A DNA stretch of 62,718 nt, filler included, from an uncultured bacterium (GCA_964637655.1; 26 parts of 26 records of this genome joined end to end with filler, not necessarily neighbours in it); one strand, 5' to 3'; positions 17,709-60,319 are shown, counted from the whole stretch's first letter. Numbers and translations: made by a program. Notes: a model not told the origin generated them from the sequence alone.

Positions 17709-18595
17709 ATGGCCTTCGGCAGAATGCGTATGTCGACCGGAAGGAAACCGCGCGCATCGCCGTCGAACTCCACCGATACAGGCGAAGGCGCGTGAACGCG
17801 GACATGTGCGGCATGACGAACGAAGAGCGACGGCGATGCTGTCGCGGTGCCGGAATAAAAGCCCGGCAGCAGTTTGACGAGCCTGCGCCGGGTGACCCCG
17901 TGGATGGCGGCAACGGCTAATCGTCCGTCGCTCGGGTGCAGATCCATATTGAGTTTCAGACCGGAGGCAATGTGCGGGTTTTTGAGGACAACTAGATGGC
18001 GGACTTTCTCCAGTCTGGTTTCAGTGCCGTCAATCATCAGAGTCATATCGGTGGGTGCGCTTTTCAGGATGGCGCGGAGGACGCCGATTCCGGTGCCGAG
18101 CGTATCGCCGAGATAGCGGCGGTTTCGGTTGGCGAAGTCAGCCACCGCCGCACCGAGTCCGATATTGCTGCTGCAACCAAATACGGAGGTTGCGGCGGAG
18201 CCGTCCCCGCGATGATACTCGATCTGGACGGCATCAATCGGCGCTGCGTTTCCGCGCAGGAGGGTTTCCATCGCGGCGACCGGCTCAACCGGAATTTTGT
18301 GGAAGCGGCAAAAGTCGGGGCTGGTTCCGGCGTAGAGGATGCCGAGTTTCAGGTCGGGTGTGCCGGATCGCACCATGCCGTCGATAACTTCGCTGATGGT
18401 GCCATCGCCGCCGACCGCAACCAGCGTATCGCCGGGCTTCGCCTCGCTGGCGAGCCGTGCGGCATCGCCGGGTCCAGTGGTGACGGCGCACTCAAACTCA
18501 GCACCGGATTGGCGCAGCGCCGCTTCCCATGCGGCCCAGCGCTGTCGACCTCGTCCGGAGCGGGAGGTTGGGTTCATGATCAGCCGGAGCGTCAT
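17709..18595 (-). CDS. Diacylglycerol/lipid kinase family (YegS/DgkB-like), 3' truncated
   Basis: NPTSRSG, VAVGGDGT.SEV, DG.L, VEFDGD. Confidence 0.9.
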
Positions 18596-19878
18596 CGATA
18601 GATCCCCAGTTTTTCATAGATTGGTGTCGGAGCACCGCGATCCCACCGCTCGACCAGTTCGCGCGCGGTTGCCCACGGAACCGGTGTTTGGGTGATCCCG
18701 TGTTTGTCCATCAGCTGTTGGATGGCTGCGGCCTGCGTGCAGCAGAGCCAGTCGGTGCAGGCCGACGGAAAATAGCTGCGCATGCGCTGGAAGATGACGT
18801 CGAACGGTTCATCGAGGACGTTGCCGAATGAAATATTGATAAATTCGCAAGGCTGTACTTCTCCGCTTGCGCCGACATAGAAGCGGTCGATCGCGCCACC
18901 GGTACAGCCGAGCACGTTGCGCTGCTCCTCGAACACCTGCGCCGCGAGTGCGGGGAACGGTTTTGTGGCGGGACTGTTGTAGCGCACGTGCTCTGTGCGA
19001 ATAAAGTCGATCAGCGTTTGGTCCGTCTGCATCGCTTCCGTGCGGCCCAGCCATTCGCCGGCCGGTTTGGGATGGATGAGCTGAACAAAGTCGCAGTCGA
19101 GCGAGCGGGTAAAATCCATGAGCTTTGCGATCCCGCCGCTACGGATTTCCTCTTCCGACAGGACCGTGTTGGCGGCCACCGAAAGACCGATTCGGCGCGC
19201 GGCACGGACCGTATTGCAGGCGGCTTCGAACGATCCCTCGACGTTGGTGAGCGCATCGTGCGTGCGGCGGTCGGGCGAGTGGATGGAGACCATCAGCCCG
19301 AGCACGCCCGCCTGTTTTAGTTCGGCGAGCTTTTCCGGGGTCGCCAGCATGCCGGAGGTGTTGACCCAGATTTCACTGCGCGCATCGAGCGACTTGACTA
19401 GGTTCAGCAGCCGCGGATAGCGGGCGAACGGTTCGCCGCCTTCAATATCGAAAAACGCGACGCCGGTGTCGCGCACCGCGCGGGCTGTTTCAATCATGAG
19501 CGCTTCGTCGAGCTCCTCGGCGGCATCCTTGCGCTGGTAGCAGTGTTCGCAGCGGCAGGGGCAGGCCTTGGTCATGGAATAGACGATCGTGGTTGGCCCG
19601 GCGGGCGAGCGCAGCAGCTTGCTTTCGACGGCATAGAAGAAGGCGGGTGACGGGTAGGCCGGCAGGTAAAGGTGAAGCTTGAAGCCCGCCGGAGTGCGTA
19701 CGATCTTGTTGTGGCGGAAGACCAGCAGCAACCGCAACGCGCGGCGCAGAAAACGGAAATAGGCCGCCGGCGAGGGGAACATTTTCGGCCGCCGGGCATA
19801 GTACAGCGGAATGTGCAGAATGATCCGCAGATAGACCATCGCCTTGCCGAAACCGGTGATGAAGCGGCGGGTACTCAT
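18592..19878 (-). CDS. Radical SAM protein with SPASM/twitch-like C-terminus
   Basis: CPCRCEHC (CxxxCxxC), GGEP, C.GG..RFYV..SGEVQPC; start at ATG 19878 overlapping the upstream stop. Confidence 0.88.
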   Translation of the reverse strand: MSTRRFITGFGKAMVYLRIILHIPLYYARRPKMFPSPAAYFRFLRRALRLLLVFRHNKIVRTPAGFKLHLYLPAYPSPAFFYAVESKLLRSPAGPTTIVYSMTKACPCRCEHCYQRKDAAEELDEALMIETARAVRDTGVAFFDIEGGEPFARYPRLLNLVKSLDARSEIWVNTSGMLATPEKLAELKQAGVLGLMVSIHSPDRRTHDALTNVEGSFEAACNTVRAARRIGLSVAANTVLSEEEIRSGGIAKLMDFTRSLDCDFVQLIHPKPAGEWLGRTEAMQTDQTLIDFIRTEHVRYNSPATKPFPALAAQVFEEQRNVLGCTGGAIDRFYVGASGEVQPCEFINISFGNVLDEPFDVIFQRMRSYFPSACTDWLCCTQAAAIQQLMDKHGITQTPVPWATARELVERWDRGAPTPIYEKLGIYR

Positions 19879-20087
19879 GAGCGTGCATCCTTGTAGAGGT
19901 TGAAAAGGAAACCGATGAAGATGTAGCTGGCGGAGAGGAGATAGAGCGCGAGCGTGCCGTTGAAGATGGCGATCAGCGCGATCTGTCCCGCCGCGCAGGC
20001 GCGTATGTTCGTGGCGAGGCTGAAGTAGGTGCGTTCGCCGGTCGGGTTGCGGAAGAAGAGTATGGCGGTCCAAATCTGCAGCAGCGT
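19875..20087 (-). CDS. C-terminal fragment of a membrane protein, possibly UbiA-family prenyltransferase
   Basis: ..WTAILFFRNPTGERTYFSLATNIRACAAGQIALIAIFN..LFNLYKDARS*; family assignment rests on the tail only. Confidence 0.5.
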   Translation of the reverse strand, partial: TLLQIWTAILFFRNPTGERTYFSLATNIRACAAGQIALIAIFNGTLALYLLSASYIFIGFLFNLYKDARS

Positions 20088-32379: not shown

Positions 32380-32553
32380 TCAGCGTATTACCGCGAGATA
32401 CTCGCGCTCTATCGCACGGTGACGCTGCGCCCGGCGGTTTACTGGCGCCTGCTGCGGCGGCACGGCCTGCGTGCCAACCTGCGACTGCTGGGCGGGGTGC
32501 GGCGTATCGCCCGCCAGTATGAACGACTTGCCCGCGAGGCAGAGAGCCGATGA
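32380..32553 (+). CDS. C-terminal fragment, probably of a B12-binding radical SAM protein
   Basis: SAYYREILALYRTV..RQYERLAREAESR* translated by hand; ATGA overlap with the next gene. Confidence 0.5.
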   Translation, partial: SAYYREILALYRTVTLRPAVYWRLLRRHGLRANLRLLGGVRRIARQYERLAREAESR

Positions 32554-33866
32554 AAAAGCTTCTGCTCATCCAGCCGTCGCCGCATGACGCGCAGGGGCGG
32601 CCGGTGAAAAAGCGGAAACTCCATTTCGTCGGGCTGGCGCTGCCGCTGCTGGCGGCGCTGACCCCGCCCGACTGGCAGGTGGAGATCTGCCTCGAAACGA
32701 TCGAGGAGGTGCCGCTCGATACGGATGCCGACCTCGTCGGCATCGGCAGCATGGGCCACGGCATCATGCGCAGTTTCGAACTGGCCCGTGCCTTCCGCGA
32801 CCGGGGGAAGAAAGTCATACTCGGCGGCTACATGGCGAGTTTGGTGCCGGAGGAGGCGGCGCGGCACGCGGACGCGGTTATCGTCGGCGACGCCGAAGCG
32901 GTCTGGACGGAAATGCTGGCCGATGCCCGCGCCGGCCGGCTGCGCCCGGTCTATCAGCGCGAACTTACGGAACTCTCCACCCCGCTGCCGCGTTTCGACC
33001 TCATCCTCGGCAAGCGTATCGGCGACTTTTTGCCGGTGCAGGCGGGGCGCGGCTGCCCGCACGCCTGTTCCTTCTGTTCCGTGCACTGCCTGTACCGCGG
33101 CCGCTACCTGCGCCGCAATCTCGACGAGGTGGTGCGCGACATCAGGCAGGTCAAAGAACTCGGGTTCCGCAACTTCCTGCTGCTCGACGACAATATCGGT
33201 GCTGACCCTGACTACCTGCGTGCGCTTTGCCGCGCCATCGCCCCGCTCGGCCTGCAGTGGCTGTCGCAATGCGCCATCACCATCGGGCGGCAGCCCGAAC
33301 TGCTGCGGGAACTTGCCGCGGCGGGTTGCACGGCGCTCAGTTTCGGACTGGAGAGCATTGCCCCCGACTCGCTGGCGGCCATGCACAAGCAGTGGTCGGA
33401 CCCGGCAGAGTACCCTACGCTGATTGCCGCGGTGCAGGGTGCCGGGATCGACGTTTCCAGCGAGATGGTGGTCGGTGGCGAAGGTGATACGCTGGCGTCC
33501 ATTGTCGCGACCGCAGAATTCATCGAGGCGAATGGCATCGTGCTGCCGCGTTTCTATATTCTTACGCCTATTCCGGGTACTGACTTTTTCCGCGAGATGC
33601 AGGCGGCCGGCCGGCTGTGCCATGAGGAGTACGCCCGGTACAATGGCAGCGAGGCGGTGCATGTGCCACGCCATATGAGCGCGGCGGAACTGTCTGCCGC
33701 CTACTGGCGGCTGTATGAACGGGTTTTCACCCTGCGCCGCATCGTTGGGCGGACGCTGGGCACCTGTCGCCTGCTGCGTCATCCCGGCCGCGCCCTGTTC
33801 TACCTGGGCGCCAACCTCTATTATCGTCGGCAGATCCGGCAACGGATTACGCCGAACATTCTGTAG
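32550..33866 (+). CDS. B12-binding radical SAM protein
   Basis: LAALTP, DLVGIGS, VILGG, VIVGDAE, GRGCPHACSFC, DDN, GLES, LTPIPGT. Confidence 0.92.
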   Translation: MKKLLLIQPSPHDAQGRPVKKRKLHFVGLALPLLAALTPPDWQVEICLETIEEVPLDTDADLVGIGSMGHGIMRSFELARAFRDRGKKVILGGYMASLVPEEAARHADAVIVGDAEAVWTEMLADARAGRLRPVYQRELTELSTPLPRFDLILGKRIGDFLPVQAGRGCPHACSFCSVHCLYRGRYLRRNLDEVVRDIRQVKELGFRNFLLLDDNIGADPDYLRALCRAIAPLGLQWLSQCAITIGRQPELLRELAAAGCTALSFGLESIAPDSLAAMHKQWSDPAEYPTLIAAVQGAGIDVSSEMVVGGEGDTLASIVATAEFIEANGIVLPRFYILTPIPGTDFFREMQAAGRLCHEEYARYNGSEAVHVPRHMSAAELSAAYWRLYERVFTLRRIVGRTLGTCRLLRHPGRALFYLGANLYYRRQIRQRITPNIL

Positions 33867-33874
33867 GAGGCACC

Positions 33875-34698
33875 ATGCGCGTACTGCTCGTTCGTCCCCC
33901 GCGCCTGCGGCAGGCGGTCACACTCGGGGAATTCATGTTCTGCGAGCCGATCGGCCTGGAATGCGTGGCCGGCGTGCTCAAGGCGGAGCATGAGGTACGC
34001 ATCCTCGACCTGATGGCGGAGGATGCGGATATCGCCGAAGTGTGCCGCACGTGGCGGCCGGCGGTGGTCGGGCTGACCTCGCTCTGCATCGATGTGCCGG
34101 GGGTGCTGCTGCTGGCGCGTCAGGTCAAGGCGCATGACCCGTCAATTATCACGGTTGCCGGCGGCACGCAGGCGTATTTTGCGCCGGAATCGTTTCATGA
34201 CGATGCCATCGACCATCTGTTTGTCTATACCACGCGCGCCAATCTTACGTCGGTATTCGCGCACCTCGCAGTGGGCACGACAGTGCCGCTGACCGACGGG
34301 GTGCACAGCCGGGCGCACGGGTTTGCCGGCACCGGAGTCGCCGGACGCAACGAATACCTCGTGCCCGACCGTTCATACACAGCAGCATACCGCGGGCAGT
34401 ACAGTTATTTCGGCTACCGGCCCTGCGCCATCATGCAGACCTCGCAGGGCTGCTCGCGGCATTGCGCGTTCTGTCTGCGCTGGCGTCTGGAGGGCCCAAC
34501 CGAAGTGGCGCAGCCAGTGGACGAAGTGCTGCAGCAGGTGCGTACCATCGTCGAGCCCAGTGTCATGATCTTCGACAATGACCTGTTCTGCGACGGGGCG
34601 CGACTGGCGGAACTTTGCGCCGGACTCGAACGCGAAGGGATACGCAAAAACTTCATCTGCTACGGCAGCGTGCGCGGTCTGCTGGCCAACCGCGCGGC
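33875..34698 (+). CDS. B12-binding radical SAM protein (3' truncated)
   Basis: EPIGLECVA, P.VVGLTS, VAGGTQA, SQGCSRHCAFC; AGGAGG RBS. Confidence 0.9.
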
Positions 34699-34800
34699 NN
34701 NNNNNNNNNNNNNNNNNNNNNNNNNNNNNNNNNNNNNNNNNNTTAATTAATTAANNNNNNNNNNNNNNNNNNNNNNNNNNNNNNNNNNNNNNNNNNNNAG

Positions 34801-46686: not shown

Positions 46687-47843
46687 GCCGCCGGGACCGC
46701 GCCGGCCGCCCGCACCGCCGCGACCAGTTCGGGCAGCGACGGCAGCAAGGCCTCGCGGGCCGCGCGCAGCAGCGCGACCTCGAGCAGCACCGCCGCATAT
46801 TCCTCCTGCTGGCGCATCTGCCGCACCGTCGCCAGCAGGCCGTCAAGCAGCCGCCCGACGCGCGCGGGCGCCACCGCGGCAAACAGTTCCGTGAGGCGCT
46901 CCCGCGCCTCCGCGCTCACTTCCTGCAGGTCGGCCGCCGGCACGCCGAGCCGCACCAGATGCGCCGCATGCACCGCGTCGACCGCGGCCTCAGCCAGGCG
47001 CACCGGGTCATGCCCCTCGCGGTCCGCCCCCTGCAGCAGTGTCAGCAGGCGCGGCCCGTCATCAGCCAGCAGCGCCGCCAGCAGGTCGAGCACCACCGCC
47101 TGCGGCACCACCCCGAGCGCCGCCCCGGCCACCGCCGCCGTCAGCTTTTCCCCGCCGGCAAACGCCACCGCCTGCTCGAGCGCGCTCTGCGCGTCACGCA
47201 CACACCCGTCCACCCCGCGCGCAATCAGGCAGAGCGCCTCCTCCTCGTGCGCGAGCTGCTCCTGCGCCGCGATGGTGCGCAGCAGCGTGACAATCTCCGC
47301 CGCGCTGACGCGGCGGAAATGGAAGCGCTGGCAGCGCGAGGCGACCGTGGCGGGCAGTTGCGTGCTTTCCGTGGTCGCGAGAATGAACGCGACGTGCGCG
47401 GGCGGCTCCTCGAGGATCTTGAGGAAGGCGTTGAAGGCGTTCTTGGAGAGCATGTGCGCTTCGTCGAGAATGAACACCTTGCGCCGCGCCCGCACCGGGA
47501 CGAGCTGCGCCTGCTCGCGCAGGTCGCGGATATGGTCGACGCTGGTATAGGAGGCGGCATCGATTTCGTGGATGTCGAGCGCCGTGCCCGCGCTGATGTC
47601 GGTGCACGAGGCGCAGGCATTGCACGGCTCGCCGTCGCGCAGGTCGGTGCAGTTCAGCGCCCTGGCGAGGATGCGCGCCGTCGTCGTCTTGCCCACGCCG
47701 CGCGGCCCGGCAAAAATGTAGGCGTGGCCGGCGCGCCCGCTGGCCACCGACTGGCGCAGCGCACGGGTCACGTGCTCCTGCCCGACAACGTCGGCAAAGG
47801 TCCGGGGACGGTATTTTCGCGCGAATACCTGGTACGTCGCCAT
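46687..47843 (-). CDS. dnaX: DNA polymerase III subunit gamma/tau (3' truncated)
   Basis: ARKYRP.TF.DVVGQ, GPRGVGKTT, zinc cysteines, EIDAAS, DEAHML, SRC. Confidence 0.96.
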
Positions 47844-47860
47844 CGTCACCACGGGAAAAA

Positions 47861-48133
<273 letters not shown>

Positions 48134-48158
48134 AGTTCTCTTCTCCTTGCAAAAAAAA

Positions 48159-48248
48159 TGGCGGAGAGGGAGGGATTTGAACCCTCGGTACCCGTAAGGG
48201 TACAGCGGTTTTCGAAACCGCCCGATTCGGCCACTCTCGCACCTCTCC
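48159..48248 (-). tRNA. tRNA-Ser (CGA)
   Basis: Cloverleaf with long variable arm, anticodon arm GCGGT-TTCGAAA-ACCGC, encoded CCA. Confidence 0.96.
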
Positions 48249-48288
48249 GCGACACGTTGCTGTGACCGTCATTGCCTATTTTCAGTTG

Positions 48289-48376
48289 TGGCGGAGAGGG
48301 AGGGATTTGAACCCTCGGTACGTTTCCGTACACTTGCTTTCCAAGCAAGCACCTTCGGCCGCTCGGTCACCTCTCC
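48289..48376 (-). tRNA. tRNA-Ser (GGA)
   Basis: Anticodon arm CTTGC-TTGGAAA-GCAAG, long variable arm, encoded CCA. Confidence 0.96.
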
Positions 48377-48392
48377 AAAACAGTAAATATGT

Positions 48393-48857
48393 CTATGAAC
48401 TGCGATTCTTCTCACGCAGGTTGGTGAAGAAAATCCTCAATAACCTGCTGCACTGTTCTTCTTCCACCCCGAATACCACCTGCGGAACATGATTCAATTT
48501 GTTATCCTGTAATATATTGTAAACACTACCTACAGCCCCTGCCTTGGCATCAAAGGTGCCGAAAACGACTTTTGCGCACCGCGCGAGAATAAGTGCTCCT
48601 GCGCACATTACACACGGTTCAAGCGTCGCGTAGAGCACGCAATCATCCAAACGGTAATACTGTTTATAACGTGTTGCCTCGCGTAGTGCAAGGATCTCGG
48701 CGTGGGCGGCAGGATCGTTCAATTCGACGATGCGGTTGCGCCCGCGGCCGATAACCTCGTCGCCAGCGACGACCACGGCCCCGACGGGGACTTCCCCGGC
48801 CGCCGCGGCCGCCTCCGCCTCGCGAATGGCCAGGGCCATGAATGCGCGGTCGGTCAT
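48393..48857 (-). CDS. tadA: tRNA adenosine(34) deaminase
   Basis: GEVPVGAVVV, HAE, TLEPC.MC, D.K.GA.GS, LNH. Confidence 0.95.
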   Translation of the reverse strand: MTDRAFMALAIREAEAAAAAGEVPVGAVVVAGDEVIGRGRNRIVELNDPAAHAEILALREATRYKQYYRLDDCVLYATLEPCVMCAGALILARCAKVVFGTFDAKAGAVGSVYNILQDNKLNHVPQVVFGVEEEQCSRLLRIFFTNLREKNRSS

Positions 48858-48865
48858 AAGAAAAA

Positions 48866-48928
48866 TGGTACGGCTGGAGGGATTCGAACCCCCGACCTTC
48901 TGGTCCGTAGCCAGACGCTCTATCCAGC
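48866..48928 (-). tRNA. tRNA-Arg (ACG), 5' truncated
   Basis: TCTGG-CTACGGA-CCAGA anticodon arm, GGTTCGAATCC T-arm, CCA. Confidence 0.92.
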
Positions 48929-49028
48929 NNNNNNNNNNNNNNNNNNNNNNNNNNNNNNNNNNNNNNNNNNNNTTAATTAATTAANNNNNNNNNNNNNNNN
49001 NNNNNNNNNNNNNNNNNNNNNNNNNNNN

Positions 49029-49635
49029 CGCCGCCGGCGATAACCAGGGGGTTTTGGCAGCCGGCAACCCCCTCGGCGAACGACTCGGGGGTGCCGGTGT
49101 AGGCGACCTTGGCGATGTCGGCGCCCAGTTCCGCAGCGACGCGCGCGGCATGCTTGACCACCTTGACATCGTACTCGTTCTTGACCTTGGGTCCGCGGCA
49201 GTACATCATGGCGAGCAGCGGCATGCCCCAGCGCACGCAGTCGCGCGCGACGGTGCCAAAATCGCGCAGCATGGTGGCCTCAGTGTCAGCCCCGAGGTTG
49301 ACATGGATGGAGACCGCGTCGGCGCCGAGCTGGATCGCCTCCTCGACCGTGCAGACCAGTTCCTTGGCATTGCTGTCAACAGCGAGCGCGGTGGAGGCGG
49401 AGAGATGGATGATGAGGCCGACATCGCGCCCGCTGCGGCGATGTCCGGCGCTGACCATCCCCTTATGCATGATGACCGCATCCGCGCCCCCCTGCACGAT
49501 GCGGGTGACCGCGTCGCGCATGCTGACGAGCCCGGGGATGGGCCCGACCGTCGCCCCGTGGTCCACGGGAACGATCACTGAGCGCCCTGAGCGCCGGTCG
49601 ATAATCCGTTCGAGACGTACCTGCTTGCCGATCAT
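49029..49635 (-). CDS. 2-amino-3,7-dideoxy-D-threo-hept-6-ulosonate synthase / DhnA-type class I aldolase (3' truncated)
   Basis: [50 protein letters not shown]. Confidence 0.85.
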
Positions 49636-49663
49636 GCGGCACCTCCTGCTTTCCTGTCTGCAA

Positions 49664-49692
49664 AATATAGCACATATCAGCAATATTGTCAA
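49664..49692 (-). promoter_or_regulatory. sigma70 promoter of the aldolase gene
   Basis: TTGACA-17bp-TATATT with TG extension. Confidence 0.8.
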
Positions 49693-49748
49693 GTTTTCTT
49701 CAATATTGCAGTTTATGTATCCATTTTTTCGCAGTGGTGTCAGACCTG

Positions 49749-49777
49749 TTGACACGTAAATGTTTTAGTGGTATACT
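49749..49777 (+). promoter_or_regulatory. sigma70 promoter driving the structured RNA candidate
   Basis: TTGACA-17bp-TATACT with TG extension. Confidence 0.85.
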
Positions 49778-49783
49778 TGATGG

Positions 49784-50083
49784 TGGAAGGAACAGAAATC
49801 GCAGGAAGGCCTACCTGCGTGCGGGCCGCGGCCCGATGGAAGTCCGGAAGTGGCCGCCCGGGCATGTTCTTTCCATGAAGGCCGTGGCTGCTTCGGGCGT
49901 ATCGTCAGGTCCCGCAAGGGGATTGGCGCCATTGGAGGCCTTCATCTTTTTCAAGGCGCCGGTTGCCCGCCTTCGCGCAAGCGAGAACTCGCAGCCAATG
50001 GGTGGCGTCCCCTGGGAATGATGCCATCTGTTCCACGTGCCGGGCGCTCCGTACCAGGCGGAGCGGGGAACCCGGCTTTTTTT
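49784..50083 (+). ncRNA. Candidate structured non-coding RNA or long regulatory leader, family unassigned
   Basis: Starts 7 nt after the -10 box; five consecutive helical domains, two GCAA tetraloops, ends in hairpin + U7. Confidence 0.65.
50039..50083 (+). terminator. Intrinsic terminator
   Basis: GCCGGG-CGCTCCG-loop-CGGAGCG-GGGAA-CCCGGC followed by TTTTTTT. Confidence 0.8.
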
Positions 50084-50202
50084 GTGCCCTGCCGCTTCCC
50101 CCGTCGCTGTCACCCTCACTGAAACTTTTCCGGAAACCTCCCTGTCAATGTTCCCGTGCGGCATAACCGCATAGTGCAAAGACAGATATGGAGGATTTTC
50201 TC

Positions 50203-51192
50203 ATGTTCGTCTCATCTTCGCGGTTTACGGGTCTTTTGCTGGTCGCTGTGGCTGCCATCACCCTGGTCGGGTGTGCCTCACGTCCTGTCGCCCGTTTCAC
50301 CGGCCCCGACCTCTCTGTTTCCGCCAGTGAACTGAAGCTGCTGCCGGTCACCCCGACCGAGGGTGAACTGGCAGTGGCCTCGGTCATCGTCCGTTCCGCG
50401 GGTACGCAGGCAACGCAATCCGTGCAGGGCGCCTTCTATGTCAACGGGCAAATGGCGCGCCCGGTGGTGGAGATCCCGGCCCTGCAGCCGGGTGAGTACC
50501 GCGAGTACCGCGTCGAATTTGTCCCCGCGCAGAGCGGGCGCACGCGTCTCGAATTCCATGCCGACCTGTATGATGTAGCGCGCGAGATCCGCACCTACAA
50601 CAACCGGGTGAGCACCACCTGCACCGTCATGGCGGCGCTCCCGGCCACCACGACCACCACTGTGGTGGTGGCGGATAACGGCGGCGTGGTGTGTGGCGGC
50701 GGCAGCGCGGCAGGCGGGGAGATCGTGATTGTCAGGGAAAAGGGGTTCGATCTGGCGCTGCTGGACGGCACGCTGCGCGTCGGGGAAGGGAATGGCGGCA
50801 AGCTGCGTTTGTCAGTCGATGTCGCCAATCTCAGCGGCGTGGCGCAGGACCGGGTCGCGCATGTCAGTTTCACCGTTGATGGTGAGGAACTCCATCCCGC
50901 GCGCACGGTCAACCGCCTCGGCGCGGGCGAGCAGGCGACGGTAAGCGTCGATTTCCGCCCGGAGCGCAGCGGCCAGCACCGCATCACCGCGACCATCGTC
51001 TATACCGGCGGATTCGCGGACCACAGCCAGCGCAATGACCGGGTCAGCGCGATATTGCACCTCAACCAGCCGGCCTTGACGTCCGCATCGAGTCGCGTCG
51101 TCGTCATCAGCGCCCCGTCACGCGACGAGCAGCGCGGGCAGGGAAACAACGGCAACCATTACGGCAATAGCGGCAATAATGACAACGGCAAC
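50203..51192 (+). CDS. Lipoprotein with two CARDB/Ig-like domains and Gly/Asn-rich tail (3' truncated)
   Basis: LVGC lipobox, PDLSV, L.PGE, E....NN, second DLAL..L.AGE..G.H.I..ND domain; GGAGG RBS. Confidence 0.8.
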
Positions 51193-51292
51193 NNNNNNNN
51201 NNNNNNNNNNNNNNNNNNNNNNNNNNNNNNNNNNNNTTAATTAATTAANNNNNNNNNNNNNNNNNNNNNNNNNNNNNNNNNNNNNNNNNNNN

Positions 51293-58218: not shown

Positions 58219-58856
58219 GACAGCTGCCAGCGCCGCCAGCGGCCGCCCGCGCACCGCGTCAATGGCGAAGGCCTGCACCCCGACCTGCACCAGCAGGGTG
58301 CCGCCGGGCTTCAGCACGCGCCGGCATTCCGCCAGTGCCGCCGCCACGTCGAGGAAATAGTCGATGCTCGCGATGCTGACCGCCGTGGTGAATGCCGCGT
58401 CGGGATAGGGAAGAAATTCCGCCGTGGCGAAAGCCAGGCGCCGCCCCGTCGCCGCTGCCGTCGCCGTCACCGCCGGGTCGATACCATGATATTCCACCGC
58501 CGGCGGCAGCTGCGCCGCCAGCGCACCGTCACGACAGCCGATATCGAGCAACGCGCCCGCCGCCCGCGGCAGACCGCCGAACCGGAAAAACTGTTCGAGC
58601 AATTCCTCACCCTGCCGCCGGGCCTGCGGCGAGTCGTCGGCCAGCAGGTCTGCCGGGAGNNNNNNNNNNGCCACTGCTGCAGGTAGGCCGCCACCTCCGC
58701 CCCGCGCGCCGCTGCCCCGGGAAAACGCGCCGCCACGAGGTCGGGCACGCGAAAATCGGGGATGCCGTCATGCTCGGGATACGTCACCGCGCAGGCCGCG
58801 CACTCCCGGCCGCGCAATGCCCCCTGGCAGCGCGGGCAGGCGTAGGACACCGTCAC
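58219..58856 (-). CDS. Class I SAM-dependent methyltransferase with N-terminal Trm112-like zinc finger (internal 10-N gap, 3' truncated)
   Basis: YACPRC..C..C...YP..DGIPDF then LLDIGC.DG, GIDP, AE.LPYPD..F, E..RVLKPGG. Confidence 0.8.
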
Positions 58857-60319
58857 GGCAGCACGTCCGCCGCGAATTCGTACGGTGCCACGCCGCCGCC
58901 GGTGCGTACCTGCCGCTGCCGCCAGCGCCGCGCGATACCCGGCAGGTGCGCGGGCAGCCGCCACGGATCATACCTCAGCAGGCCGCGCAGTATCGTCGTC
59001 GCCTGCCGCCACGCCGGGGCGTTGCGCTCAAACAGGTAATTCCCCGAGCGCCAGTTGATTTCATAAAACGCCGCGAGTCGTTCCGCGCGCGTAAACTCAG
59101 CCGTCTCGCAGGCGATATGCACCTCGGTGCCGTCAGCCGTGTCGAGCGCCACCTGGTGCGCGGTCTCCGGCGTGTGGTGGATAGTGCCGTGCGCCGCCAT
59201 CCACGCGTGCGCCGGCGTCCCCGGATACGGAACGAGCAGTGACCACTCGGTGAAGGTGAACCCGAGTTCCTGCGCCAGGGCGAGATTCCGCCGCGCCCGC
59301 GCCGGGGTATCATGCGGCAGCCCGATGATGAACGATCCCCACAACGGCATCCCCTCCGCCCTGATACAGGCCACCGCCCGCCGGATGTCGTCGAGCGTCT
59401 CCCCCTTGTCGATGGCGTCGAACACTTCCGGGACGAGCGACTCCACCCCGATTTTGACGTAGGTGCACCCGGCCGCGCGCATCGCCCGCACCATTTCCCG
59501 CGTCACCGCGTCAGCCCGCAGCCCGCTCGGCACATGCCACGGCAGCGTGATGCCATGACCCTGCAGCCCCGCGCAGAACTCGATGACCCGTTCCGGGCGC
59601 AGGTTGAATGCCGGTTCGACCACGGCGAATTCGCGGATACCGAACGTCCGCTGGGCGAATTGCAGTTCCGCGAAGACGCTCTCCAGATCACGCGGCCGCC
59701 AGCCGCGCCCGCCCATCTTCGGGTTGCAGAACGAGCAGGCATAGGGACACCCGCGGCTGGTGGCAATATGATACGGCGCATGGATGCGCGTCACCCCGAA
59801 GTGCCGGTAATCGGGATGATGCAGTGCGCCGAACGCGCGCCGCACTGCGGGCGGTGTGCCCGTCACTACGCCCGTGCGCCTGTACCAGACGCCCGGAATG
59901 CCGTCGTAGTCGCCGCGCGCCCGCTCACACACCGCGCGCAGCGGCTCTTCCCCTTCGCCAACCACCAGCAGATCGGCACCCGGAATGAGGTCCATGATCC
60001 GCTCCGGTTCGTACCCCGTATGCGGACCGCCCAGCACGATGCTCCCGTCATAATACGCGCGTAGTCCCGCCGCGAGACGCGCGACCGTTGCCAGCGTCGT
60101 GCAGTGGATGTTGAACCCGACCAGCGCCGGGCGGCGTGCCGCCACCTCGCGCCGCAGGATCGCCGCCGCCTGCGCTTCCGTACACGGCCAGCTCCCCAGC
60201 GGCAGTACCGACAGCGTGGTATCCGGCAGGTCGAGATTGGCTGCCAGCCAGCCGAGCCCGGAATTGAGCGCTGACGCCCGACCCGTCGGCGGATCGACCA
60301 GCAGCAGGTGCCGGTTCAT
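58853..60319 (-). CDS. B12-binding radical SAM protein
   Basis: LVGFNI, IVLGGPH, VGEGE, TSRGCPYACSFC, IGVES, FIIGLP, PYPGT. Confidence 0.92.
   Translation of the reverse strand: MNRHLLLVDPPTGRASALNSGLGWLAANLDLPDTTLSVLPLGSWPCTEAQAAAILRREVAARRPALVGFNIHCTTLATVARLAAGLRAYYDGSIVLGGPHTGYEPERIMDLIPGADLLVVGEGEEPLRAVCERARGDYDGIPGVWYRRTGVVTGTPPAVRRAFGALHHPDYRHFGVTRIHAPYHIATSRGCPYACSFCNPKMGGRGWRPRDLESVFAELQFAQRTFGIREFAVVEPAFNLRPERVIEFCAGLQGHGITLPWHVPSGLRADAVTREMVRAMRAAGCTYVKIGVESLVPEVFDAIDKGETLDDIRRAVACIRAEGMPLWGSFIIGLPHDTPARARRNLALAQELGFTFTEWSLLVPYPGTPAHAWMAAHGTIHHTPETAHQVALDTADGTEVHIACETAEFTRAERLAAFYEINWRSGNYLFERNAPAWRQATTILRGLLRYDPWRLPAHLPGIARRWRQRQVRTGGGVAPYEFAADVLP

Follow-up and report, generated by a model that had tools for sequence, protein, structure and literature searches.

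A non-coding RNA gene under selection is present on the plus strand at positions 49784-50083 of the DNA analysed here. This DNA, the window, is a stretch of 62,718 nt from an uncultured bacterium (GCA_964637655.1). The RNA is of an ordinary kind, and its family is undescribed, as judged from Rfam 15 and a limited search of the literature. Transcription would start at about 49784 from a near-consensus sigma-70-type promoter and end at an intrinsic terminator at 50083; the product would be about 300 nt long, with a conserved, putatively structured body of about 255 nt (49784 to about 50038). What does such an RNA do? The explanation favoured here, that of a stand-alone structured RNA, is given about an even chance. 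We infer a discrete transcript, a fold and action in trans through a protein partner. The RNA may act by its folded shape, as do 6S RNA, raiA RNA and OLE RNA, its most likely role being that of a protein decoy or of the RNA component in a protein complex. Leaky termination may also contribute to expression of the downstream gene, which encodes a CARDB-domain protein.

Genomic location and gene boundaries

The window is not continuous DNA: short, separate contigs of a draft genome have been joined end to end to make it. Twenty-five linkers are found between 2498 and 60519, one per 2.3-2.6 kb, and the pieces are sorted by decreasing length. Each linker consists of 44 N, the sequence TTAATTAATTAA (12 letters of stop codons) and another 44 N, e.g. 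48929-49028 and 51193-51292. Because the pieces are separate contigs, gene neighbourhood across any linker is meaningless. The contig that carries the RNA comprises 49029-51192 only, and thus an aldolase gene and a CARDB gene are the sole true neighbours of the RNA. The context given in the original prediction, which was made from the sequence of the window, is to be corrected in this respect.

The aldolase and CARDB genes are divergent and are separated by an intergenic gap of 567 nt (49636-50202). The aldolase gene (49029-49635, minus strand) belongs to the 2-amino-3,7-dideoxy-D-threo-hept-6-ulosonate synthase family, as shown by a DeoC/LacD family match and by NF005556 (308 bits, cut-off 241). 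The CARDB gene (50203-51192, plus strand) is recognised by two stretches of PF07705 (E = 3.1e-19), and its product has no match in NCBIfam. Both genes are truncated at their 3' ends by the contig edges. The N-terminus of the CARDB protein has a lipoprotein-like signal ending in LVGC, a lipobox judged by eye from the translation. In the 5' untranslated region of the CARDB gene, a hairpin is predicted at 50128-50200 (plus strand), in which the GGAGG of the ribosome-binding site is paired to a CCUCC stretch (z = -0.94, not significant); it may represent a candidate translational control element.

Other contigs of the window carry genes unconnected with the RNA by position. One of them (46687-48928, minus strand) has dnaX, the gene for a large (Bacillus-type) SRP RNA, two tRNA-Ser genes and tadA. 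A partial tRNA match at 48877-48928 on its minus strand (30 bits, model positions 10-63) is truncated at the contig edge; a full tRNA (66.7 bits) is found at the matching place in the nearest genome (G001, described below), just before the end of a G001 contig. A third contig of the window carries an AcrB-like gene, and radical-SAM and B12-binding-domain genes are present on further contigs at 18592-20073, 32550-33866, 33875-34750 and 58853-60319.

The near-consensus promoter that had been predicted is present upstream of the RNA. It consists of a -35 TTGACA, a 17-nt spacer and a TG-extended -10 TATACT (49749-49777, plus strand), with 11 of 12 consensus matches, and the predicted RNA start is at about 49783-49785, about 7 nt past the -10. 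A scan of 49400-50400 finds two promoter-like sites (0.3 +/- 0.5 in shuffles). Both score 11/12 and they are arranged back to back, the second being the aldolase promoter (TTGACA, 17 nt, TATATT; 49664-49692, minus strand). The same scan finds no promoter-like site in 50084-50202 (plus strand), i.e. in the spacer and 5' untranslated region before the CARDB start codon. The G+C content is 39% in the promoter stretch and 64% in the following 300 nt.

At the other boundary is an intrinsic terminator (50039-50083, plus strand) with a 6-bp outer stem, a bulge, an inner stem and seven U. Positions 50039-50076 together with the seven U fold with an energy of -26.4 kcal/mol (z = -2.84), a stability reached by 3 of 200 shuffles; the terminator with U7 described earlier is therefore borne out. 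It was overlooked by a simple scan because its stem is interrupted.

Conservation in environmental RNA libraries

Fifteen public sequencing runs contain part of 49300-50700, and six of these are RNA libraries. The share of this interval is 0.48-0.60 in four of the runs, which may represent the source sample, and small in seven others. The decisive evidence comes from four RNA runs, each belonging to a different study (freshwater sediment, sediment, soil and sludge) and having one contig on the RNA. These contigs are 151-245 nt long, about 93-98% identical to the window and situated within 49798-50042. The comparison of variation is based on these four runs (X10-X13) only, in the form of difference tables. 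Run X10 covers 49798-50042 with 16 differences. X11 covers 49811-49997 with five differences, followed by 29 unlike letters, and X12 covers 49814-49997 with four differences and one gap, followed by 46 unlike letters. X13 covers 49883-50034 with three differences and one gap. Contigs from RNA libraries do not by themselves prove transcription, strand, ends or level.

The distribution of the changes is far from even. All 16 variable sites are confined to 49857-75, 49946-59 and 49997-50012, and the runs left constant measure 70, 59, 37 and 30 nt. Random placement of the sites matches this clustering in 0.1% of 20000 trials, or in 0.7% when X10 is taken alone. Of the 49 sites in the variable zones, 13 differ in X10, and the intervening blocks have no listed difference. 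The 70-nt block at 49876-49945 is constant in all covering contigs, and so is 49961-49996 in all four. The linker between these two blocks has either a 1-nt deletion or a C to T at 49946; it also differs at 49950 and 49953, and 4/4 contigs have a C to A at 49959. Clustered variation of this type points to selection on the RNA sequence and not to a mere closeness of the organisms.

Are these constant blocks parts of a protein gene? Open reading frames of 36-122 codons overlap the RNA. The 1-nt deletion at 49946 is found in two of the four independent runs, and the length of a hairpin near the 3' end (hairpin 4, below) differs in X11; because such indels disrupt every reading frame that spans them, there is no conserved frame. 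In the only frame that begins with ATG (49836-50021), third positions account for 4 of the 16 variable sites by hand count. That the region lacks a credible open reading frame, as was originally stated, thus agrees with the relatives.

All eight contig ends are inside 49798 to about 50045, and the rough chance of such nesting is 0.001. The contigs from the RNA libraries all stop near 50030-50045, which gives a hint of a discrete, perhaps 3'-trimmed, transcript. The promoter, the terminator loop, the untranslated region and the CARDB gene are without cover in the four RNA runs, an absence of cover that, like the contig ends, counts as no evidence. A quick check of public RNA libraries can tell a real RNA gene from noise.

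Predicted secondary structure

The original prediction described a series of helices, all of which are found where they had been placed, and three competing pairings, which are perfect complements. The 5' domain (49784-49875, plus strand) is closed by helix H1 (49784-94/49865-75, 11 bp with one G-U) and contains the hairpin CGCAGG/CCTGCG (49800-19), four GGAAG motifs, the constant block 49798-49856 and a first variable zone, V1 (49857-49875). The GGAAG motifs are at 49785, 49804, 49838 and 49846, in agreement with the earlier description. The central domain (49875-49945, plus strand) has helix H2 (49875-83/49937-45, a perfect 9 bp with no G-U), which encloses a GCAA-capped stem (49909-23). A U-rich variable linker, V2 (49946-49960, plus strand), leads to the third domain (49961-49996, plus strand), where GGTTGC/GCAGCC surrounds a 5-bp stem capped by GCAA, with pair probabilities of 0.73-0.97. 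Hairpin 4 (49997-50032, plus strand) has a G-U-rich 13-bp stem (49997-50009/50020-32, four G-U) and a 10-nt loop, and has comparative support from the relatives.

Helices found by eye in G+C-rich DNA are weightless alone, and in the present case they are at chance level. The folding energy of the whole RNA has a z of -1.13 on the plus strand (10 of 100 shuffles equal it) and of -0.44 on the minus strand. Helices of at least 9 bp number eight, the mean in 300 dinucleotide shuffles being 8.3 (58% reach eight); those of at least 11 bp number three, the shuffles having 1.3 (15% reach three). A 13-bp helix is present in 17% of shuffles. Moreover, RNAfold gives several mutually exclusive folds, which vary with the RNA ends that are chosen. 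Four GGAAG motifs are reached by 0.3% of 1000 shuffles, and ten GGA are present in 300 nt (6.0 +/- 1.8 in shuffles, 2.6% of which reach ten), both being post hoc tests. Helices and folding energy are thus at chance level and the motif counts alone stand out.

Variation in the relatives discriminates between the folds. Single-sided changes within the helices first described keep the pairing in 11 cases and break it in three. In the 3' arm of H1, six changes keep and two break the pairing, the 5' partner being uncovered and assumed constant. H2 has one change, A to G at 49875, and the pair is kept; in hairpin 4 of X10, four of five arm changes keep the pairing and one breaks it. Helices peculiar to the minimum-energy fold show 9-10 breaks and a single change that is kept, in a UUGGAGG helix. 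The hairpin GGCGCC/GGCGCC of that fold is broken by the V2 changes in 4/4 cases, its long-range pairs 49827-34/50000-07 in 3/3 and its pairs 49848-57/49884-93 in 2/2. For the 5' half, the observed variation leaves an alternative fold (49824-33/49880-89 with 49836-41/49871-76) just as intact.

Hairpin 4 merits separate mention. After 49997, X11 has six letters, a near-identical 10-nt loop and six letters that are exactly complementary to the first six; the letters missing in X11 are the middle four pairs of the stem as found in the window. This putative rebuilding of the hairpin provides modest two-sided support. Of all the helices, hairpin 4 has the best comparative support. When the 29-mer of X11 is folded on its own, RNAfold prefers two mini-hairpins over the shortened hairpin 4. 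Inside the aligned parts of the four relatives no two-sided compensatory change is seen, and the covariation that had been put forward as a check did not emerge there. The model first described is the best available and ranks above the thermodynamic folds, but is not yet backed by covariation. A structured RNA, as originally proposed, is weakly indicated: single-sided changes fit its helices, but the helices and the folding energy are no better than chance.

Distribution in genomes and metagenomes

The search for homologues had a divided outcome, with contigs in four RNA libraries and none by nhmmer, BLAST or covariance model in the genomes searched. The nearest genome, G001, is a clear but not a close relative, its DnaX being 73% identical. 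The contig with dnaX, the SRP RNA, tRNA and tadA genes is collinear with a contig of G001 (74.6% DNA identity over 2257 nt), and the aldolase gene with its promoter has 76% DNA identity to G001. At the aldolase locus the similarity stops at 49709, short of the RNA promoter. In G001 a different gene abuts the aldolase promoter, and the RNA and the CARDB gene are both missing there; the best CARDB match of G001 is a domain-level one elsewhere in the genome (29% identity over 135 residues). Neither BLAST nor the covariance model finds a copy of the RNA in G001. The RNA is therefore not universal even within its own lineage, unless the G001 draft is incomplete.

A BLAST search of genomes G001-G003 at E up to 10 gives short chance matches only, the best being 29 nt of coding DNA in G001, and searches of 60 and then 400 relatives of G001 give no real match (0/400). 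The covariance model, in which the sequence of the window was entered twice and 49 pairs were chosen, has no match in G001 and weak matches (14.9-18.2 bits) in five of 150 relatives. Four of these alignments were inspected and rejected: the strongest outside the window is noise-like, and the one match whose context was checked lies inside a 397-codon open reading frame. Eighty aldolase loci, collected by a search with the aldolase protein, have no similarity to the RNA by nhmmer or blastn. A scan of JGI metagenomes with a 20-mer from a constant block gives five loci, each sharing only a 20-22-mer; these were also rejected as homologues, the two inspected being coding DNA and none of the five having an Rfam match. 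A scan of viral contigs with a 23-mer gives 0 hits, and a distant BLAST search against plasmids and phages no match.

What is the host? The lineage looks Bacillota-like from its sequences, because the SRP RNA is of the large type and the MurD look-alikes and nearest MurD clusters are mostly from Bacillota. The gene order tadA-SRP-dnaX, which is the Bacillus arrangement, is in keeping with this. Searches for the order, class and phylum around G001 returned G001 alone, which is either the sole representative or a member of groups whose labels are missing. With a single relative of the lineage in the genome collection searched, the RNA marks a biology that is invisible to culture-based work.

Function of the RNA

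Features generally expected of a small RNA gene are found together at this locus: a promoter and a terminator of its own, the lack of a conserved frame, and contigs in RNA libraries. The original prediction offered two functions, a novel small RNA or a switchable leader of the CARDB gene. The former is better supported by the strong terminator 119 nt before the start codon, by a constancy over about 200 nt and by the lack of a convincing antiterminator; the latter retains a fit to the same strand and to the lack of a separate CARDB promoter. Among small RNAs, a regulator that base-pairs through a short seed is less likely, because the long blocks (59, 70 and 37 nt) stay constant and it is the joints that vary, at about one site in four.

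The RNA might also be the first representative of a new class of multi-domain RNAs under strong constraint, protein-bound or catalytic, like 6S, raiA and OLE; this is put forward tentatively, as a possibility. Such a class would be specific to a deep-branching Bacillota-like lineage of which hardly any member has been sampled, and which would occur widely, at low abundance, in sediments, soil and sludge. The blocks without a single changed letter would then owe their constancy to a tertiary fold or to an extensive interface with a protein, and not to simple helices. It is rare for an orphan structured RNA to be constant over most of its length, and earlier examples (6S, OLE, raiA) opened new biology.

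The foremost rival to the stand-alone RNA, conceivable if somewhat doubtful, is a long 5' leader (attenuator or riboswitch-like) of the CARDB lipoprotein gene. The terminator would normally stop transcription, a ligand, a protein or a temperature signal would permit read-through, and the RNA libraries would contain the stable, stopped leader. The arrangement is what one would look for, with the RNA on the same strand as the gene, ending in an intrinsic terminator, and with no promoter-like site in the 119 nt (50084-50202) that follow. RNA and CARDB gene are jointly absent at the matching place in G001, whose best CARDB match is the distant one mentioned above, and the host is Bacillota-like by its large SRP RNA and MurD clusters. 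Terminator attenuation is common in Bacillota. The untranslated region can also hide the ribosome-binding site in a hairpin, but the terminator is strong and the fold of the untranslated region (z = -0.94) is not significant. No convincing antiterminator was found: the best pairing to the 3' arm of the terminator is 8 bp with three G-U, and a second candidate, in which 49855-61 matches the 5' arm over 7 bp, is disrupted by the C to A change at 49857 in two of the three covering runs. A near-total constancy over about 200 nt also exceeds that of the usual aptamers, and no riboswitch, T-box or other leader family is matched. If the RNA is a leader after all, it would represent a new regulatory element for a surface-protein gene.

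Repeated GGA motifs had also suggested an RNA that binds CsrA. As a CsrA/Rsm-type sponge, the RNA would hold CsrA on these motifs, and the enrichment in GGAAG and the milder one in GGA, the position of three of the four GGAAG inside constant blocks, and a CsrA gene in G001 (90.5 bits, cut-off 27; the nearest genome and not the organism of the window) are consistent with it. The idea proved weak and is improbable, in that few of the motifs are in hairpin loops. In the model first described, a hairpin loop contains one of the ten GGA (50015) and another (49804) borders on stem and loop, with the remainder in stems or in long unpaired runs. The GGA density is below that of known sponges, no CsrB or Rsm family is matched, and a sponge leaves the long constant blocks without GGA unexplained. 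In addition, Bacillus-type CsrA is known to be countered by the FliW protein rather than by RNAs.

It is very improbable that the region has no function at the RNA level, i.e. that it is a small-protein gene, a gene remnant or a spacer that appears conserved because the relatives are very close. The chance level of helices and folding energy and the overlapping 36-122-codon frames would be in keeping with this. Uniform neutral drift would not produce the tight clustering that the variable sites show (p about 0.001). Furthermore, indels disrupt the frames, there is no excess of third-position changes, the consensus promoter and strong terminator bracket the region exactly, and contigs from four RNA libraries are situated on it.

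Comparison with known RNA families

At gathering thresholds, Rfam 15 has four matches in the whole window and none in 49784-50083, and the novelty originally claimed thus stands. In 49600-50250 there are five matches only, with E-values of 1.8-8.9 and scores of 7.6-18.5 bits, the thresholds being 40-125.8. ARAGORN finds two tRNA-Ser genes only in 47500-50500, and no tmRNA. The RNA remains unassigned, as first described, with no identity as a tRNA, SRP RNA, tmRNA, 6S RNA, T-box or riboswitch. Within the part of the literature covered, no publication bearing on the RNA was found.

RNase P RNA, 6S RNA, tmRNA and the T-box leader were each considered and rejected. RNase P RNA gives no match even at E up to 10; a type-A RNase P RNA scores above the cut-off in 28/30 relatives, G001 among them. 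For 6S RNA there is no match to RF00013, and the only candidate closing stem is overlapped by the best-supported hairpin, hairpin 4; 6S RNA is above the cut-off in 12/30 relatives, and G001 has its own weak full-length candidate (40.6 bits). A tmRNA is matched neither by ARAGORN nor by Rfam. A T-box leader (RF00230) is likewise unmatched, and the downstream gene encodes a CARDB protein and is not an amino-acid gene.

Some short resemblances are present nonetheless. An 11-mer inside the terminator (50068-50078, plus strand) is identical to a stretch in a locus with the RNase P RNA gene of a relative, and with a 10-mer at 49838-47 it looks like both strands of the catalytic helix of RNase P. Local similarity to the RNase P, 6S and SRP loci of relatives gives nothing longer than 10-13-mers, and the RNase-P-like matches are judged to be chance. 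The 5' arm of hairpin 4 resembles the T-box motif, but the T-box-like letters are absent from X11. A diverged member of a known family that the Rfam models missed is hardly credible and is already largely refuted, since the RNase-P-like 11-mer and the T-box resemblance that speak for it are located in the terminator or are lost in a relative, none of the four families appears at E up to 10, and canonical RNase P and 6S RNAs are found in the relatives.

Relationship to other RNA systems

With terminator-type leaders the RNA shares its position on the same strand upstream of a gene, its intrinsic terminator and a downstream gene without a separate predicted promoter. Unlike riboswitch and T-box leaders, it has no aptamer or T-box match and no clear antiterminator, it is situated 119 nt from the start codon, and the gene downstream encodes a surface protein without a known ligand-linked pathway. 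The likeness to CsrB/RsmZ sponges lies in the repetition of GGA and GGAAG and in the presence of a CsrA gene in the nearest genome; unlike in these sponges, the motifs are mostly outside hairpin loops and of lower density, there are GGA-free constant blocks, and the family is not matched.

Another parallel is offered by raiA and OLE, which are large orphan structured RNAs of Bacillota, both with families in Rfam. Like them, the present RNA is non-coding, well conserved and built of several domains, with GNRA-capped stems, a possibly protein-linked function and a Bacillota-like host. It differs in having no Rfam match, a far narrower spread (0/400 relatives by BLAST and none in 150 by covariance model) and a fold without the backing of covariation.

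The 6S RNA (RF00013) provides a further comparison. Its fold is one long rod with a central bubble, whereas the present RNA is a string of several hairpin domains. There is no match to the 6S model, the body of about 255-300 nt contrasts with a model of 187 positions, the candidate closing helix (49789-96/50027-34) is incompatible with hairpin 4, which is better supported, and G001 carries a separate 6S candidate. The likeness is one of general design: both RNAs stand alone with a promoter of their own, are present in environmental RNA libraries and are well kept within a lineage, and action through shape on a protein, as in 6S RNA, is proposed for the present RNA.
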